Source: Vermamoeba vermiformis (taxonomy: Eukaryota). From it: 64,000 bases of DNA. The notes below the pieces were generated by a model, which was given only the letters and a program-made list of their open reading frames with translations, was not told the origin of the DNA and did no database searches. Both the position numbers and the translations under genes were made by a program. The stretch is from contig JBEWZL010000006.1 in the NCBI GenBank assembly GCA_045837725.1, positions 62,001 to 126,000 of the forward strand. The letters run 5' to 3'. Positions 3,019 to 44,790 of the stretch are shown here, in pieces (positions within the stretch are counted from its first letter, which is position 1; each line of letters opens with the position of its first letter).

Positions 3019-4101
3019 TTAATAAATCCACGGGATAATTATATTTTTGGTGGAGTGTTTTGTTTTGTCGCTAATTTTGGTTTTGTACCAGAGATCGGTT
3101 TTGGTTGCAGAATCCGCCAAGTTGACGAATACAAAAGCTAAAATTAGCCATAGGGTAACGCACCGACCCGCAGTCATGGTAATAAACGAGGTGTATATCA
3201 GTACCTCTGCGAAGTAATGTGGTGCTGTCAGGGTTTTGAACCACTTTTCGTTCGGGATCTTGTACTCTTTGTCTGCCGGTGATTTTCGGAGTGACGCTAG
3301 TATCTTATGGCATACGTGCTGCATGTAGTTCCCATAAGCAAAAATCACGAGTCCTACGAGGATATAAGGCGCAGGCAAGTGCTCGCTGCCAAACGTAACC
3401 TCCACATCTGTCGCGATAGCGATGGGCGCAAAGACATAATACGCAACGGCTGATAATAGACATTAAATTAGATCATCGTGAGACTAGGATTGCGGGAGAC
3501 TTACCCATCAGGAAGTTGAAGGGGTGTGTCATGCGATGGCTAAATTTGTGTATAAAAAAGCACTCGTACAATCTCCGAAAAAGATGAGATTGATACAAAA
3601 ATAGAATACAGAGAACTGCAGCGTGACTGGAGAGGGGTTGGGTCTGAAAATAAAGAAAATGGAGTGGTTAGCCCAGAGGATTGTTGCCTTTTATGGTAGA
3701 TGCTGGATCGCGTGCGAGGTACCTTGATAATAAAAGCAATGATTGGGAGATTAATAGCAGTGCCTACAATATAGCAGCTGGTAAAGACCCATTCATGAGG
3801 CACGAAGAACTTTGCAAGGAGGTCGTGTTTGGCAGGTGTTTTGAACGACGATAGTTTGCCGTACGTTGTTAATTGATTTAGCTATTTAATAAATGGATTA
3901 GGAATAGTCTAATAGCCTCTCTTAATAAGTTGACGGTATGAAAGCGACATCCAAATTATAAAAAATTTGGAGACTTACCCACGGGATAAAGAATCTGATT
4001 ATCAATAAAATCAATGCCACAGACCATGCAGTAATTGATAAAAAATAAGTAATATTTAAAGCTTCTCTAGTAAGCAAGTTTTCGAATCTGAGCCATGTCA
4101 T
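3019..4101 (-). CDS. SRD5A3: Polyprenol reductase / steroid 5-alpha-reductase family membrane protein
   Basis: Motifs YGKL, VPHEWVF, QHVCHKILASLR, YKIP..WF..LTAPHYFAEVLIY, IIIPWIY; multi-exon. Confidence 0.85.
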
Positions 4102-4291
4102 CTCTGTACTGCCATCAAACAATCATGTTAAATATGGTAGGTGAACTGTGATATATGGCGTGAAGTTCTTGTGCTTATTTACATACAACAACCGCCTGTG
4201 TGGTTGTGCCAAAAACAAGAAATAAAATAGATCAGTTTTGTTCTGCCACGCAGCTCTATCAGCACAAGCTTAAAAATAGTAAAATTATAAT

Positions 4292-7200
4292 ATGGGCTCA
4301 GGATTATCGAAGAAGGCTGAGGAACGGATCAGCACCGCCAAAAAGAACAAATCCAAAGAAATCAATCTGAGGGACTGTCAGCTCAAAAAATTACCTCATG
4401 TCGTTAAAACAGCATTAAAGGGACTCAAGATCCTTAATATTTCTCAAAACTACATTGTAGAGCTGCCTCCAGCTATTGGCAATTTTGTGGATCTGGAAGA
4501 GTTCTATTGCGATACTAACGAAATTGATGAACTTCCAGCCGAATTATTTACACTAAAAAAATTATTGGTATTAAATGTGGCTCGTAATCCTCTCACTTCA
4601 TTGCCCGGTAAGATATTGAAAAAAAAAAAATAACAACAATAATTTGTTATAGGCTTGGCATGTTACCATAGTAATATTATACTGCCATTAATTTATACTT
4701 TTACATTTTTTGTTAGTAATTGAATTAGTTGCTCTCTTCCAACGGCTCAGCCTTTGATCCGTTTTCTCCACTATTTAAATCGAATCATGGCGTCGAATGC
4801 TAATATATTTGCATATTAGATCAATATATCGCCGAACTTGGTGCTCTTACCACGCTGGATTTGTCAGGCACTTCGATCGAAAAACTTCCTCCTAACCTCG
4901 GCAAGCTTCAATCGCTCACTACTTATATTCACCAATCTTGCGGCTTAGCAGAGGTACCTCCTCAAATCCTTCATTTGAAGAACCTTCGAGTACTGGATTT
5001 GTCAAGTATGTGCGAATAACCGAAAGTTATTCTTGGACCCTCGATCTCCTATTCTTACGAAATATGAACCCTACCATAATTCAATAGGAATTTACGTCGT
5101 TAATGCAATTTTCAATCATTACTGTATTGATTATTCCCTTTTTTGAAATCTTTTACGTTGCGGATCAGCACGTTGGCAATTAATTAATAATCTGTGTTTT
5201 TGTAGATAATAAGATTACGACTCTACCCGTCGACCTCGACAAGCTCGTGAACTTGGAGCGATTAGATTTGTCTAACAACCGATTGTCAAAGCTCGAAACA
5301 CCCGTTGCAGCACTCAACAACCTTCGAACGTTAATTTTGAATAATAACCCTTTGAGTACGTCATATTATGTGCTATATGATTATGACGCTAACGAGGTAT
5401 TATAGCCGATGTATCCAACTTCCCGTTTAGCAAGTTGGGTAACTTGATTGAATTGAACATGAACGAGTGTCACTTGGAGAAGATCAGTCAAGAGATTGGC
5501 ACGTTAACAAAGCTGCAAACATTGGAACTCGGAATCAACAAGCTCAAAGTCATTCCGCGACAGATAGGTATGAGATTTTATATAGCGCGGGAATTTTTGT
5601 TCGCGTGCCATGCATGTTGGAAATCTCGTGTCAAAAGGCCGGATCAAGCTGTTTGGACCAATCGTTTACAGCCACATGACGCAATCTCGAGATTACGAAT
5701 TTATTGTTAAATTGCGACCCGTTCATACATAATTACCATTTTAGTCAATTATTCCGCTTGTCTCGACAGTTACTTAATTATTTTGAATATACTTAAAGAA
5801 GCTACAAAGCTTATGATATATAATAGATTTAAGCGAAAGTTACAGAGTCGAGATTTAGGGAGATTATACTTGAACTCCAGATACTAATTATATTTCAGGA
5901 CACATTGGAACGGGCTTACGAAGGCTCAACTTGAGAAGTAATCAAATTGAAGATGTGCCTGGAGAATTCAGCTTTTTTGAACCGGCTATTGATCTAGATT
6001 TATCAAATAATCCGCTCCGCGTAAGTAATGATTTCATGCTCGATAAAAATAGATCCGCGTTGTGAAATCTTTATGACTTTGATAAATTGAAACAAACGAT
6101 ACTTATATAGAAATTTGCGGTGAAATATAATCACCTTGTTAAGGGCTTAATTTCTCGCGAACGGATCTTGCTTTCTTACGAAGATCGGTCTTCGATCTTG
6201 CTAGGGCAACTTGTACTTACGTCCTTTCTATGACAGGGTCAACAACAGCAATGGCTCGACCAAGGAGCTCCTGTATTAATCGAGAACTTAGCGCCGTTTA
6301 CTAAGGGTAAGGGGTTTCTCTATTTCGCGTCGGTTAGGATCCACGTCGGGCAAGCTCACTGAAAGTATACCATCTTCGTAAGGCTTCGGGTGTATATCGA
6401 CGAGATGTACTCCGTGGTGCTATCGTATTGCTTTGTCTAGGGTGGCTCAATTCAATTTCGGAGTTTTCAGATTCAGATGCGAATCCGTTTCTTACAGTTA
6501 TTATCTGTAGCTTGGCCAGCTCACTGCGAATGCACCGGCGACAGCTTGAACACAGCACCGGCGAAGCAAGGTGTTTCATTCTTTATCAACGCTAAGGACT
6601 TCAAGGTACGTGAAACGAATCGCTCAATCTCCGCTCATTTTCGTGGATGCACCGAGCGTTCATGAACCAATCTCAAATTTTCTGGCAAAGCAAACAAATA
6701 GCCGATTCGATCCTTTTATGGATTGTGTGGGCCAGCACCCGAAATTTAACTTTCATGAACGAAATTTTCCTCTTCCAATCGTTATCGCATGCGATAACCA
6801 CCAAGATCTAACCGGTATATCGCCTTAGGGCAAAAAACGTACGACTGGCAACGATAAATTCGACGTGCTCTTCGTTAGACAAGGCTCAGAACTCGATGTT
6901 GGCGATAGCAAGTACTACCAAAATGAAGGCATAGTCAAGGATCTCAAGAACGGCACTTACGTAAGTCTCAATTATTATTACTCCAATAGTACTCTACACG
7001 ATTACTTAAGTCGACGGCTATTTGCCGATAGTTTAATATTATTTCTCGTTCTATGATAAGGGTCAAAAATAGCTCGTGGATTAAGCGTTAAACCCCGGAG
7101 TTTTTTTTGGCCTTGAAAAAAATGAAGGAACGCTACTCCGAAAATAACTTTTATGATATACTATACTATATGCTATCCACGTTCTATAATCGATCTTGAA

Positions 7201-20637: not shown

Positions 20638-20713
20638 ATATAGATGTTAAACTGTGTTATTTATTTAAAATAAGAGTTTTAAACGAAAGTAAAACAATAG
20701 TTAAGACGAATTA

Positions 20714-21735
20714 TGGTAAAACGACAGCGCAGGGGGAAAAGTATTAATGTAAGGCATATAATAGTAGAAATAGTAGATATAACTTTATATTGTAGTTATT
20801 AGTAAGTGCTATACCTCAAAGTGTTAAAATCAGATCAGAAATAAAATTAACTTATTTTATCTCAGATCTGACATGTCAGCACCACAAATGCACAAAAAAG
20901 AGATGCATAAATATAATATCAAATGGAATGATTTTATTTGTAAGATGCTCATGATGCAGATGATTAGAAAATTTATTTATTATTCAAATAATAAAATTAG
21001 TAATAATTATTATAATAATTTATAATTGAGCATACATATTAAAGCCTTCATATAATTTTATTAATATATAAATTAATTTAATAATAAATAATTTTTTAAT
21101 TTTATTATTTTATTTACATAATGGGACACTTTGCTTGGTTCAATCTCTCACCACAATGGCAACAACTCTCACTGTAATGGTGACAGCTCTCTCACCGCAA
21201 TGGTGACGACTCCCTCGCCGCAATGGTGACGACTCTCTCACCGTAATGGTGATGGCTCTCTCACCGCAATGGTGACGACTCTCTCGCCATAATGGTGATG
21301 GCTCTCTCACCATAATGGTGACGACTCCCTCGCCGTAATGGTGACGACTCTCTCACCGTAATGGTGATGACTCCCTCGCCGTAATGGTGACGACTCCCTC
21401 GCCGTAATGGTGACGACTCTCTCACCGTAATGGTGACGACTCCCTCACTGCAATAGTGACAACCCTCACTGTAATGGTGATAACTCTATCACTGCACTGG
21501 TGACCTCTCACTGTAATGGTGACTTTACTTGACTGAGTGCCCTTGCTACCCCACTAGCAATAAGAAAGAGTGAGAGGTGACTCCACTCAAGGTCTAGCAC
21601 CCTACAGCTTAGTGTCAGTGCTAGTTCCTCACTTAATCTTATTGATTACCAGATATCCCATTGTTAATTTGCCAATAAACTTGTATATATATTTCAGTAT
21701 AAAACTTTTTCCCTCCATGCGCTGTCGTTTTACCA
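20714..21735. mobile_element. Non-autonomous TIR DNA transposon (MITE-like, ~1.02 kb), probable TA target-site duplication
   Basis: TTATGGTAAAACGACAGCGCA (20711-20731) is the exact reverse complement of TGCGCTGTCGTTTTACCATAA (21718-21738) and extends imperfectly inward (GGGGGAAAAGT / ACTTTTTCCCTCC); TA on both sides; no transposase ORF. Confidence 0.8.
21145..21523. repeat. Minisatellite, ~17 copies of a ~23-bp unit CTCYCTCRCCGTAATGGTGACGA
   Basis: Tandem copies directly visible; each has an internal inverted repeat TCACC-N5-GGTGA; edge units are degenerate. Confidence 0.95.
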
Positions 21736-21861
21736 TAAAATGTGTTAGTTTACGTCCTAAAGCGAAGTCGAACAGTTACTTTCAATCCGGATGTGGCTCC
21801 CTTTCTTTAAGAATACACCACTTATTTGCTTTCTATGAACATTCCATAAGTTTATAAATAT

Positions 21862-39100: not shown

Positions 39101-39814
39101 CGGAGTTCTCTATCTAACCAAATCGAAGGTATTATAATACTATATGAATATATGATATGTATTTTAGATCTCTTACCAGGAAATCACGCTCCATCTCCTT
39201 CCATTCGTTAACCTCGTGGAGGATCAAGCAAAAATAAGATCTGAATAACAATAAATTTAGTGTATAATGCTGTATCGGTGCGATATATATATACCTGAGA
39301 CTATAGTATGTTTCCCAATCCGCCTCATTGCCATCTAAAGTAATAACGTCGATTGTTAACTACCAGTCCAGAGATGTGACCGGTTAAACGACTTACCTGA
39401 TGGAAACACGTATGGATGGGCATTATCATACATCCACTTTTTATTTGTAATGTTTTTTATTGGCAAATCTTCGCCCCATCGAGCGAAGCAAGCTGATCTC
39501 CAAAACTGCCTATTCCGGGTGACGTTTCTGAACCTCGAACAGACTAAAAAATATTTTTATTTAATTTGCAATATTAAATAAACGAATAAGAATGCAAAAA
39601 TTTTAAGTTAGGGTTTTCTAGAAATAAAAAAGAAAATACATCCGTAAAATAATTCAATTTAGCAAGATGTCGTACCACCTATTTCAGGCGAGTAGGCTAA
39701 AATTTGTTGCAGCAACTCGTCAGGGAGCATATCAAAGTAATTTAATTGAGACTTGATCCGTTTGGTGGATCTATCGTCGATCGAGTCCTTCGCGGGTCTT
39801 TTGTTACTACGCAT
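36169..39814 (-). CDS. Large multi-exon F-box protein with helical C-terminal region
   Basis: NLS-like KRPAK..KRIK, F-box YFDMLPDELLQQILAY...VCSRFRNVTRNRQFWRSAC; many short GT-AG introns; exon structure approximate. Confidence 0.65.
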
Positions 39815-40048
39815 GATTAAATATACAACTACGCATGCAAACTCGAGTGCCACACAGTTTTGAAGTGGTACTAGTGTGTCAGCTCAAAATAGAAAAGTGT
39901 GCAAACGAAAAAAAAAATTAACGCGCCAACCCTGGTTAATTTTTTTAACCATTAGACCACGATTTAAGCACAACATAACGACAGTACTAATAACTATATA
40001 ATTTGCACGCTGCCAATTTTGTGTTCAACCAACGACTGTGGCTTGTTA

Positions 40049-42089
40049 ATGGAACATAGTAGAGAAGGTTCGTACAACAGTCATTCCTCTTTAATTTTCA
40101 GAATTTGATTCTGGACATTGTTTTGCAGCTGAAATTATCATTATTTAATTTATTGCCACCAGCACCCACTAAAAATTGGACAACAGCCCAAGTTGTAAAT
40201 TGGGCTCAAAGATGCAATTTTACTGAGGCTGAAATCCAACTGATTCAAGAACACAGATTGAATGGAGTCAAACTTGCAGCCTTGCCAGATAGGCAGTTCA
40301 TCCAAGACTTAGGCTTTGCCAAGACAACATCCCACCTAATTTGGGCTGTCATTGATTCAATCAGTAAGCACAAAGTGCCACATTGCCACATAATTGTACT
40401 GATTATCAACTTTTCAGAGCAAAGTTCAGAAGGGTCAGAAATCATGCAGTTAAAAACACAAGTCACAGCATTGAAAGAACAAGTGGTTGCATTGACAGGA
40501 CAGTTAACAGTGCTCAAATTAAAGGACTCCTCACCTTCATCAGCTGCACAACTTGTTGCTGTCATTACCAAGGAGGATACTGCAGAATGCTTCAAAGGCT
40601 TACACAATGCAACTAACTATGATGAATTTCAACCAAATGAAGGCAATCTCATCCAGCAAATAATTGAGCACTTCTGCTCTGCCAAGTTGAAGCTGATTGA
40701 CACCCATGAAAGAGGTCTAATTTCAATGGAAAACAAACCTGGCATTTGTGTGGTTGTGAACAAACCAAAAAGTCAGCTATCTGCTCTTTCAGTTGTAGCT
40801 GTTATGGAATTGACAAAAGTGAACTTAACAGCTGCAAGAGGACATGTAGTCAAGGACCTGTTGGAATTAGCTGATTTGCAGCCAAATAGGGCAAGTTTTA
40901 TGGGAATCTTTGCAGACAAAGAACAAGTTGGATTTTTAAGACTTACCAAAACTGCAAATGCTGCAAATCCAATCACTTTTGTCCAATCTTCAATGATGCC
41001 CTGGTCTGAAGGTTTGCACTTTTACTTTACAACCTTGGCTAATCATACTTGTAGGATCAACTTGGTTGTGGAAGTTGTTGAATTCAGGTGCAGACCTTCT
41101 TGGTTTCATTCCTCCAGGGGCATTGAAAATAGACACTACCATCTTCACAACACAAAGGCACAAACATTCTGACAGCATGATTTGCAGACTTGAAGATCCA
41201 TTGGTTGATGGGACAAGTAAAGGTCATGCTGTCATAGCACCATGCTGGATTGAAGACTCAGCTCACATGTCTCCAGAAGTGGGAGTAATCAAGTACAACA
41301 AAACTGGAGATAAAGAAGAAATTGCCAGAGAAGTGCAAGCACTTGAGAGACTCCAAGATGCAAATGAATGGGTAGATATAAGTGCAAGTCATCCATTGTA
41401 AGTTGCTTGCTTTTGTTCAAAACTTGACTAATTCTAGATTACTTCCTGTTCCAATTCTTCTTGGACATGGTACCACACCAGTGGAAAACTATCCATACAT
41501 TGTAACCTTACCACTTGGAGCCCCACTCACTGAGATTCAAGACTTTGTGTCTTTTGCCAATGAGCTGAACTTAGCACTTGTGTATGCACACTCAAAGGGC
41601 CTGTATCATGGGGATGTTGCTCCAAAAAATGTGGTGATGCATTGCAACAAGCCAGTGTTGATTGACTGGGGCTATGCAATGACTATAGGAGAGGTGATTT
41701 TAGGCTTTACAGGTACATTGACCTTTGCATCAGTTGCTGTCACAAACCTTCATGGGAAAATCAAGGCCTACACCTATCAGGCACGTGATGACTTTGAGTC
41801 ACTGTTTTTCACACTGCTGTATCTTGCCTCAGGGAATTCTCTGCCTTGGACTAAGAATGACCTGCCTCCAGGTACTAGTTTGGCTTACATGAAAAAGTTG
41901 GCTGTTACCACAGAATGGAAGAACACTGCAAAAGCCATTGTGAACATGGACTTACTTACTTTGTTTGATACCATGCAAATCAAGCTGTTTGGTGATTTGT
42001 CAGCACCAGTGACAAGTTTGATTGATGGTGCAGAAGAAGAGATCAAGAGGCGCATGGATGATCCAAAATCAAGCTTGAAAGTTCTTTAA
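40049..42089 (+). CDS. SAM + coiled-coil + degenerate restriction-endonuclease-like domain + FunK1-type kinase (Crinkler/CR-effector-like)
   Basis: Introns 40068-40162, 40364-40417, 41012-41054 and 41398-41437 join all ORFs in frame. SAM (WTTAQVVNWAQ..IQEHRLNGVKL); DTH..KPGI..VVAVMELTK..GHVVKDL..LQPNRASFMG; kinase HGDVAPKNV, LIDWGYA, GTLTFAS, RDDFESLFFTL. Confidence 0.8.
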
Positions 42090-42170
42090 AAGGCTAACTA
42101 GTGAATCATTATAAGTATAAACATTTAGTAATAGTACAATGTATAGTATTTATCAATTAGTGTCCTTGTT

Positions 42171-44790
<2,620 letters not shown>

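Follow-up and report, generated by a model that had tools for sequence, protein, structure and literature searches.

How can a single intact gene lose nearly all of its CpG dinucleotides while the genes on either side keep theirs? The question is raised by a gene at positions 40049 to 42089 of a 64,000-nt stretch of contig JBEWZL010000006.1 (assembly GCA_045837725.1, labelled Vermamoeba vermiformis), here referred to as the window. The original prediction had described a CpG-erased but intact gene of the Crinkler/FunK1 type at this site, and had offered two alternatives for its state, namely long-standing targeting by a cytosine-methylating system or arrival from a CpG-poor donor. Germline cytosine methylation typically leaves CpG decay as its footprint. 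The explanation favoured here, to which we assign a probability of about 0.55, is that the CpGs of a native gene were converted in place by a deamination-type process, which was confined to this gene and acted under partial selection.

A CpG-erased tract coincides with one gene

Dinucleotide counting delimited a tract of 2155 nt (40072 to 42226) with only two CpGs, at 41784 and 42051, where approximately 92 to 100 are expected; these are the same two that had been read by eye between about 40073 and 42089. The observed/expected ratio (o/e) of CpG is 0.02 in the tract versus 1.17 in the whole window (2924 CpGs in 64,000 nt), and the Poisson probability of two or fewer CpGs in 2155 nt at the window's own rate is approximately 9 ∙ 10−40. 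TpG and CpA reach 1.57 and 1.60 in the tract versus 0.99 and 1.01 across the rest of the window. The GC content of the tract (40.2%) is like that of the rest of the window (39.6%), and the description of the gene as moderately GC-rich has to be corrected. In the 1-kb bins 40001–41000 and 41001–42000, 3 and 1 CpGs were counted (o/e 0.08 and 0.02; TpG/CpA 1.59/1.62 and 1.63/1.57), whereas the other 62 bins hold 27 to 66 CpGs each, with an o/e of 0.81 to 1.70, TpG values of 0.66 to 1.37 and CpA values of 0.74 to 1.46. The neighbouring genes are indeed CpG-rich.

The edges of the tract are sharp. From 39900 on, CpGs are located at 39906, 39922, 39924, 39960, 39979, 40008, 40033, and 40071; up to position 42300, these are followed only by the two CpGs at 41784 and 42051 and then by those from 42227 onward. 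The gap from 40071 to 41784 (1713 nt) is the longest of the window. The next-longest gaps, 468 and 283 nt, both lie within one repeat-like element (20711 to 21738); the further gaps of the tract measure 267 and 176 nt, and all remaining gaps of the window are at most 137 nt long. When 1275 sliding windows of 300 nt were merged at an o/e below 0.45, four segments were obtained: the tract itself, two segments within the element 20711–21738, and 4001–4300 (o/e 0.44). The tract begins 23 nt past the ATG and 4 nt into intron 1, where the last normal CpG (40071) is found, includes the introns, and ends approximately 137 nt past the stop codon. It coincides with a single gene of five exons and 602 codons. 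Erasure, edges, and products of the erasure are direct observations.

Both surviving CpGs, read on the plus strand, belong to arginine codons. The CpG at 41784–41785 is part of the CGT codon in the conserved kinase motif ARDDFES, as had been proposed, and the CpG at 42051–42052 is part of a CGC codon in the C-terminal tail. Of the 16 other rows in the family alignment A1, 11 have the arginine of ARDDFES, by our count.

An assembly chimera or contamination as the origin of the tract has nothing in its favour and is scarcely credible. Record 2 of sequencing run X1 (39807–40310) spans the left tract edge with no differences, and X1 covers the whole stretch with depth in all 30 bins. X1 is possibly the assembly's own sample, in which case only X5, an aquifer metagenome from a separate study, is independent. 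The X5 pieces are 90% to 97% identical, and one of them (record 13, 41971–42247), at a low depth of 2 to 4, joins the 3′ end of the gene to the same neighbour. A transposable element as the source of the tract was rejected as well, since neither terminal repeats nor a target-site duplication were found at its edges; the search for a direct or inverted repeat pair or a target-site duplication bracketing 40072–42226 was negative.

The composition matches complete CpG conversion

The CpG deficit of the tract goes together with a matching excess of TpG and CpA, in exons, introns, and 3′ spacer alike. The 373 non-coding nucleotides (introns and 3′ spacer) hold 1 CpG versus 9.6 to 11.6 expected. In the coding part, the codons TCG, CCG, ACG, GCG, CGA, and CGG are all absent, as are CpGs across codon boundaries, and 13 of the 15 arginine codons are AGA or AGG. 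Because coding and non-coding DNA are depleted alike, a process at the DNA level rather than codon choice has to be assumed. For comparison, 16 stop-to-stop open reading frames (ORFs) of the window were chosen as a host set (4195 codons; most with Pfam matches, not verified exons). The share of the codons ending in CA is higher in the gene than in these host ORFs (TCA 0.46 versus 0.18, CCA 0.71 versus 0.29, ACA 0.44 versus 0.21, GCA 0.50 versus 0.26), and arginine accounts for 2.5% of the residues versus 5.2%.

To obtain the composition expected after conversion, each CpG of the host ORFs was changed in silico to TpG or CpA at random. The converted host ORFs and the gene then agree closely in TG (1.63 and 1.65), CA (1.48 and 1.59), and TA (0.54 and 0.43), as well as in arginine (2.2% and 2.5%) and histidine content (2.6% and 2.8%). 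In terms of all 16 dinucleotides, the distance of the gene to the centroid of nine converted host ORFs is 0.38, compared with 1.38 to the unconverted centroid, while the nine converted ORFs show mutual leave-one-out distances of 0.49 to 0.74. The gene thus lies within the spread of the converted ORFs, and only CpG conversion separates it from native genes. Its composition is that of a native gene after complete conversion of CpG to TpG or CpA, with the products not yet decayed.

Such a composition points to a conversion at the locus itself, or else within a genome composed alike, and speaks against a long stay in a CpG-poor donor, because in the latter TpG and CpA would be lower, as they are in the gene region of the metagenomic relative L005 (1.26 and 1.09). 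Of the two alternatives considered originally, in-place decay is accordingly the one favoured by the composition test, and the CpG-poor donor the one disfavoured. The direction of change can also be followed in the protein. At 15 sites, L003, a homologue that has kept its CpGs, has arginine where the gene has another residue, and in five of these the gene carries histidine, glutamine, or tryptophan, residues that arise from CGN codons by a single deamination; in the opposite comparison (arginine in the gene, another residue in L003), none of eight sites has one of these residues in L003, although the numbers are small. The halved arginine content shows that mutation prevailed at many sites. 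On the other hand, the frame is open, the kinase motifs have been retained, and the CGT codon of a conserved arginine has survived, all of which indicates selection during or after the process.

Relatives of the gene and the possibility of import

Relatives of the gene are encoded by 35 metagenomic loci, with a lowest o/e within the match of 0.28. L001 and L003 share 54% identity with exon 5 and have a normal gene o/e of 0.94 to 0.95 in flanks of 1.13 to 1.35, apart from the 371-nt 3′ flank of L003 (0.54). The L003 contig is similar to the window in composition, and its gene shares two apparent intron positions with the erased gene. L004 (49% identity on exon 5) has an o/e of 0.59 in the gene and 1.11 in the flank, and L005 and L006 (39%) have a gene o/e of 0.32. 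The remaining 29 loci match 26% to 42% of exon 5, with an o/e in the match of 0.45 to 1.55. The proposal that the family as such had long been targeted holds only in part: the values of L004 and of L005/L006 hint at partial depletion in some relatives, but L001 and L003 are normal, and the erasure as such is specific to the lineage of the gene. Synteny with the window was not detected for L003, L001, L004, or L005, in which the gene itself was the sole match.

L005 (1–6829) and L006 (1–2969) encode a family member with intact nuclease motifs together with KilA-N and HEAT-repeat genes. Over the 445 nt that precede the first ATG, the o/e is 1.10, and it falls to 0.36 and 0.08 in the downstream genes. 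The depletion extends over the entire contig rather than picking out single genes, with values of 0.08 to 0.36 over at least 6.4 kb and smaller peaks of 0.65 to 0.74 at presumed promoters. In this respect, it resembles a genome with methylated gene bodies.

The presence of a family member in such a CpG-poor context, together with the sharp, gene-sized edges of the tract, would fit a recent import, by transfer or introgression, of a segment the size of the gene from a CpG-poor relative, in which case the tract edges would be insertion edges. We consider this unlikely. Beyond CpG and its products, the composition of the gene is indistinguishable from that of host genes, and its TpG and CpA values correspond to complete, undecayed conversion. 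No donor with an o/e near 0.02 is found among the 35 loci; the best relatives reside in CpG-normal contigs, the tract carries no target-site duplication or terminal repeat, and in the 90% to 97% identical relative of X5 the gene adjoins the same neighbour, albeit at low depth. An origin from giant viruses was rejected, as only two loci lie on viral contigs, both with kinase-core matches of 33% identity.

The L005/L006 contig, with its depleted gene bodies and less depleted presumed promoters, also bears on ordinary mosaic gene-body methylation, of which the gene would be the one methylated example in the window. In line with what a review describes for animals and plants (PMC7862722), the depletion sets in shortly after the transcription unit begins and stops close to its 3′ end. 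However, an o/e of 0.02 is far below that of the other depleted loci (0.28 to 0.59), and no other sampled ORF in the 64 kb is depleted, including those of the housekeeping genes RPA1, EFL1, and V-ATPase C. Gene-body methylation is, moreover, largely missing from fungi according to statements in two reviews (PMC7862722, PMC13297926). Taken together, this makes gene-body methylation of the ordinary kind very improbable.

Haplotypes and the age of the erasure

A second form of the gene was detected in X1. It differs by approximately 9% over 40860–41117, differs in the flanks (39664–39725 and 42251–42350) as well, and has about two thirds of the main depth, which suggests a second haplotype as the most likely source, or else a co-occurring strain. 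Five of the 14 listed flank differences of this form are transitions between CpG and TpG or CpA. Within the gene, the second form contains 1 CpG in 258 nt. Since it is likewise nearly CpG-free, the erasure predates the split of the haplotypes. As a test for ongoing removal, the changes that create a CpG were counted in the second haplotype; 1 was found among 22 substitutions compared with 2.9 expected, which is not significant.

These data are also relevant to an explanation by selection against CpG, whether or not methylation acted as the mutagen; a selfish or toxin-derived gene, for instance, could evade methylation-based silencing or a CpG-reading host factor by losing all its CpGs. The erasure is 98% complete, more so than in any of the 35 relatives' loci, and only two CpGs are present where approximately 12 new ones would be expected since the haplotype split (4.5% change per lineage over 2155 nt, of which 13% is CpG-making, extrapolated from the single stretch of 258 nt). 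The lack of CpG inside the element 20711–21738 might have the same cause. However, the haplotype test did not reach significance. One-step transitions yield the same TpG and CpA, and the products can therefore not separate selection from mutation pressure, but the loss of arginine and the excess of histidine resemble mutation overriding selection rather than careful synonymous recoding. Selection against CpG as the cause is quite doubtful in our view.

A second CpG-depleted element

Apart from the tract, the longest gaps of the window fall into the element of approximately 1 kb at 20711–21738. Between perfect inverted repeats of 21 nt (20711–20731 and 21718–21738), it has two arms, the first of them AT-rich, on either side of a central array of 23-nt units. 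The array (21196–21437) contains 21 CpGs (o/e 1.13), whereas the two arms outside the tandem array have none versus 18 expected. The edge units of the array differ from the core units by CG versus TG or CA. These features hint that a process of CpG decay acts on some sequences of this genome. In its layout, the element resembles a miniature inverted-repeat transposable element (MITE) with CpG decay.

Proposed course of events and points against it

According to the favoured explanation, a native gene encoding a protein with a SAM-like domain, a coiled coil, a restriction endonuclease (REase)-like domain that is now catalytically degenerate, and a CK1/FunK1-like kinase domain would have had nearly every CpG in its transcribed body turned into TpG or CpA, through a process of the cytosine-deamination type that was confined to the gene. 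The most likely process would be CpG methylation followed by deamination of 5-methylcytosine (5mC), and a CpG-specific hypermutation resembling repeat-induced point mutation (RIP) may be considered as the alternative. The gene might have been marked in a manner directed by its transcription unit or by homology. Selection would have retained the reading frame and the kinase motifs, with one of the surviving CpGs encoding the conserved arginine of the family, while about half of the arginine codons expected from host usage would have been lost and the active site of the nuclease would have disappeared. The gene is native in kind, with short GT-AG introns like those of the host RPA1 gene and two intron positions shared with the CpG-keeping homologue.

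Several observations weigh against this explanation. In silico, full conversion without selection would change approximately 55 residues and introduce about three stops in a frame of 602 codons, and a single burst would therefore require luck or selection. Nine sampled ORFs of the window, each at least 600 nt long, have a CpG o/e of 0.84 to 1.31, and none is depleted. The closest relatives keep their CpGs, which is incompatible with a family-wide rule. No paralogue of the gene was found in the 64-kb window, and the contig depth in X1 is not raised (272 to 357 in the gene compared with 370 to 430 in the flanks), although depth is not equivalent to copy number; a trigger by repeats is thus unsupported. 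The exonic differences of the second form comprise 11 nonsynonymous and five synonymous codons, a sign that this part of the protein is weakly constrained. Finally, the change in place, 5mC as the agent, and the way in which the gene was singled out are what we infer, and for agent and targeting this counts against the explanation.

A more far-reaching interpretation would be that a still active cytosine-marking or deaminating system singles out one toxin-derived nuclease–kinase gene, and perhaps small repeats such as 20711–21738, in a gene set that is otherwise CpG-rich and apparently unmethylated. The gene, now CpG-free and no longer methylatable, would have persisted as a working kinase, so that an epigenetic quarantine ended in escape. 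This is speculative, and we regard it as rather unlikely. Should the gene-confined decay favoured above be confirmed, it would show that a process of the genome-defence type can be directed against a single cellular, toxin-related gene and still leave it intact. The gene would then illustrate, as a natural case, how strongly a sequence may be altered under mutation pressure with its kinase core preserved by selection, and the locus would serve as a handle on the methylation biology of the host lineage.

Gene model and domains of the product

The gene is located on the plus strand and consists of five exons separated by four GT-AG introns (95, 54, 43, and 40 nt), which yield an open frame of 602 codons, in agreement with the intact frame claimed previously. 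Exon 1 (40049–40067) contains the ATG and six further codons; the start was assigned to the sole ATG that opens the frame. Intron 1 (40068–40162) is followed by exon 2 (40163–40363), intron 2 (40364–40417), exon 3 (40418–41011), intron 3 (41012–41054), exon 4 (41055–41397), intron 4 (41398–41437), and exon 5 (41438–42089). The positions of introns 3 and 4 correspond to breaks between the tblastn segments of L003, and also of L001, at residues 272/273 and 386/387. Gene model and family are directly observed.

The four larger exons were compared individually with Pfam at E ≤ 1, and only SAM_PNT, DUF6826, and kinase families were matched. Exon 2 encodes a weakly SAM-like domain (SAM_PNT 21.1 bits versus a cut-off of 24), for which nine weak matches were obtained in the PDB (E 0.2 to 0.9), seven of them to proteins named CNK2, aveugle, or SARM1. 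Exon 3 encodes a coiled coil and a domain matching DUF6826 with 17 bits (below the cut-off of 26.6). Exon 4 comprises a linker and the N-lobe of the kinase with the lysine of VIKY, and exon 5 the C-lobe (HGDVAPKN, DWG, GFTGT, ARDDFES) and the C-terminal tail. Exon 5 alone passes the profile Pkinase_fungal (PF17667) narrowly, with 25.7 bits versus a cut-off of 24.1. The order of SAM, REase, and kinase domains suggested earlier is therefore plausible.

An exhaustive HMMER search with exon 5 retrieved 715 proteins at E ≤ 0.001, the best of which is 59% identical. In full-length relatives (514 to 588 residues), a kinase match (Pkinase_fungal or Pkinase) comes after DUF6826 (PF20713); P0009, P0012, P0032, and P0064 show this order, and the DUF6826 score of P0064 is 39.9 bits. 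Pkinase_fungal was detected in 16 of the 20 relatives scanned at E ≤ 0.01, in 12 of these above 24.1 bits and up to 60 bits (55 to 60 bits in P0012, P0009, and P0008). A look-up of exon 3 in a protein atlas returned the same families, whose members are mostly labelled Zoopagomycota (score 0.88, to be taken as a lead only). A word-index protein search of exon 5 against longer proteins gave no match, and the same search with residues 120–330 of P0012 found only P0012 itself and P0009.

Among solved structures, the family profile built from alignment A1 matched CK1 alpha best (1.3 ∙ 10−19), followed by CK1 delta (to 1 ∙ 10−17) and then TTBK and VRK, with an overall range of 10−19 to 10−11. The gene's kinase retains all invariant and nearly invariant columns of A1. 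Downstream of the activation loop, the segment ARDDFES is of the RDD(L/F)ES type and would correspond to the CK1 motif. At the arginine of this motif, relative P0002 carries a cysteine, the one-step product of CGY to TGY, in a single, anecdotal case.

A model of the middle domain was calculated with AlphaFold2 from an alignment of 25 rows (pLDDT 78.3, pTM 0.77) and compared with 48,161 chains using VIA-align. The matches include BpuSI (Z 7.3), an HsdR fragment (7.0), TT1808 (7.0), 3ijm, a protein with a restriction endonuclease-like fold (6.8), DrdV (6.7), and 9y1l (6.3); at least 28 of the 50 listed matches are restriction enzymes, resolvases, or other nucleases, as counted by their titles. 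The top match is a mitoribosomal protein (Z 7.8), and all Z values are below the caution line of 8. With Foldseek, no match at E ≤ 0.001 was obtained for this model. The family consensus of the domain reads HDTH...PD...ExK...GQ. In the gene, the aspartate of PD (present in 20 of 23 aligned relatives) is replaced by glycine, the lysine of ExK (15 of 23; glutamate in seven) by threonine, and the glutamine of GQ (20 of 23) by histidine, while the glutamate of ExK is retained (21 of 23). The inactivity that had been suspected from a KPG in place of KPD is thus supported by two further replacements. Judged by sequence, the relatives with DUF6826 and a kinase domain appear to form a nuclease–kinase family, and the nuclease of the gene's own copy looks dead. 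The gene product is likely a kinase that oligomerizes via its SAM domain and coiled coil and whose nuclease-fold domain would at most bind nucleic acid.

Genomic neighbourhood

Upstream of the gene, a spacer of 234 nt (39815–40048; 9 CpGs, o/e 1.15) is presumed to contain a shared promoter. A divergent ORF on the minus strand (39662–39814) begins on the other side of this spacer, 234 nt upstream of the ATG; the sequence LPDELLQQIL in its first 51 residues is presumably F-box-like. Downstream, the last exon of a convergent neighbour (minus strand, 42171–42380) encodes a Vps4_C/AAA lid domain, and its final 56 nt lie within the tract. No reads from two RNA sequencing runs under the same species label, X6 and X8, mapped to the whole 3.2-kb stretch, neighbours included, which says nothing about expression.

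The window also encodes a subunit of replication protein A (RPA), an EFL1-like GTPase, a kinase of the MARK/KA1 type, the V-ATPase C subunit, and a protein with a fungal Zn2Cys6 domain. The two introns of RPA1, located by aligning a transcript-derived protein of 81% identity, are approximately 67 and 70 nt long and carry CpGs. The RPA1 ORF (1272–2885) has relatives with 76% to 99% identity, among them a transcriptome sequence; the best named ones are 36% to 40% identical, with fungi of several phyla about equal to animals. We take the host to be a fungus or a fungus-like opisthokont of a deep-branching, hitherto unsampled lineage.

Comparison with known systems

The protein can be compared with the Crinkler (CR) effectors, of whose C-termini about one sixth pair an REase with a protein kinase, for example in CRN8 of Phytophthora infestans (Zhang et al., 2016, as cited in a passage of PMC5289972). 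Like these, the gene product would contain a domain of the REase superfamily followed by a kinase in one polypeptide, a likeness at the level of domain order. It differs in having a SAM-like domain and a coiled coil in place of the header and in the loss of the catalytic aspartate and lysine of the nuclease domain. The CR header is described in the same source as a ubiquitin-like fold with LxLFLAK that ends in HVLVxxP (PMC5289972, in part). No Pfam match to a Crinkler header was found in the four larger exons at E ≤ 1, and LFLAK, FLAK, HVLV, and HVL..VP are absent from the 602 residues. As the header is missing by both profile scan and motif search, the Crinkler label of the original prediction was rejected and the gene is not filed as a Crinkler. 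A report on Crinkler-like sequences in teleosts (PMC12957317) has no bearing on this gene, and FunK1 kinases as targets of small RNAs in stripe rust (PMC4578785) are too distant a case for comparison. With FunK1 kinases, the gene shares the passing of the Pkinase_fungal profile by exon 5 and, in its relatives, DUF6826 ahead of the kinase. Unlike FunK1, the family has its best solved relatives in CK1 alpha and delta, TTBK, and VRK, and the DUF6826 score of the gene is below the cut-off. DUF6826 is not mentioned in the open-access literature searched.

Gene-body methylation leaves methylated genes CpG-poor in animals and plants. The tract is similar in spanning the transcription unit and sparing its promoter and initial few tens of nucleotides, but the depletion is far greater (0.02) and only one of approximately 25 genes is affected. 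In methylation induced premeiotically (MIP), known from Ascobolus and Coprinopsis, a duplicated copy is needed. The marking of a gene-sized segment with sharp edges would match MIP, whereas no duplicated copy was seen in the 64-kb window.

To our knowledge, the descriptions of CpG decay in fungi concern transposons and repeats rather than individual intact genes; very little 5mC has been reported for early-diverging fungi. Transposons of the rust Austropuccinia psidii are CpG-depleted by deamination of 5mC (PMC12774611), and CpG-biased, RIP-like hypermutation is described for Basidiomycota (Horns et al., 2012, PMC3318451) and for Rhizoctonia solani AG8, in which coding genes are hit besides repeats (PMC4014442), each according to parts of these reports. 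A single intact gene erased to the degree found here is not described in the open-access literature searched. The comparison of RPA1 (best named matches 36% to 40% identical) indicates that the host is not a basidiomycete, which separates the present case from those in Basidiomycota. With fungal CpG decay and RIP-like change, the tract shares the C-to-T change at CpG that leaves an excess of TpG and CpA; it differs in that one apparently single-copy, intact gene has been erased to approximately 98%, with its flanks and neighbours untouched.

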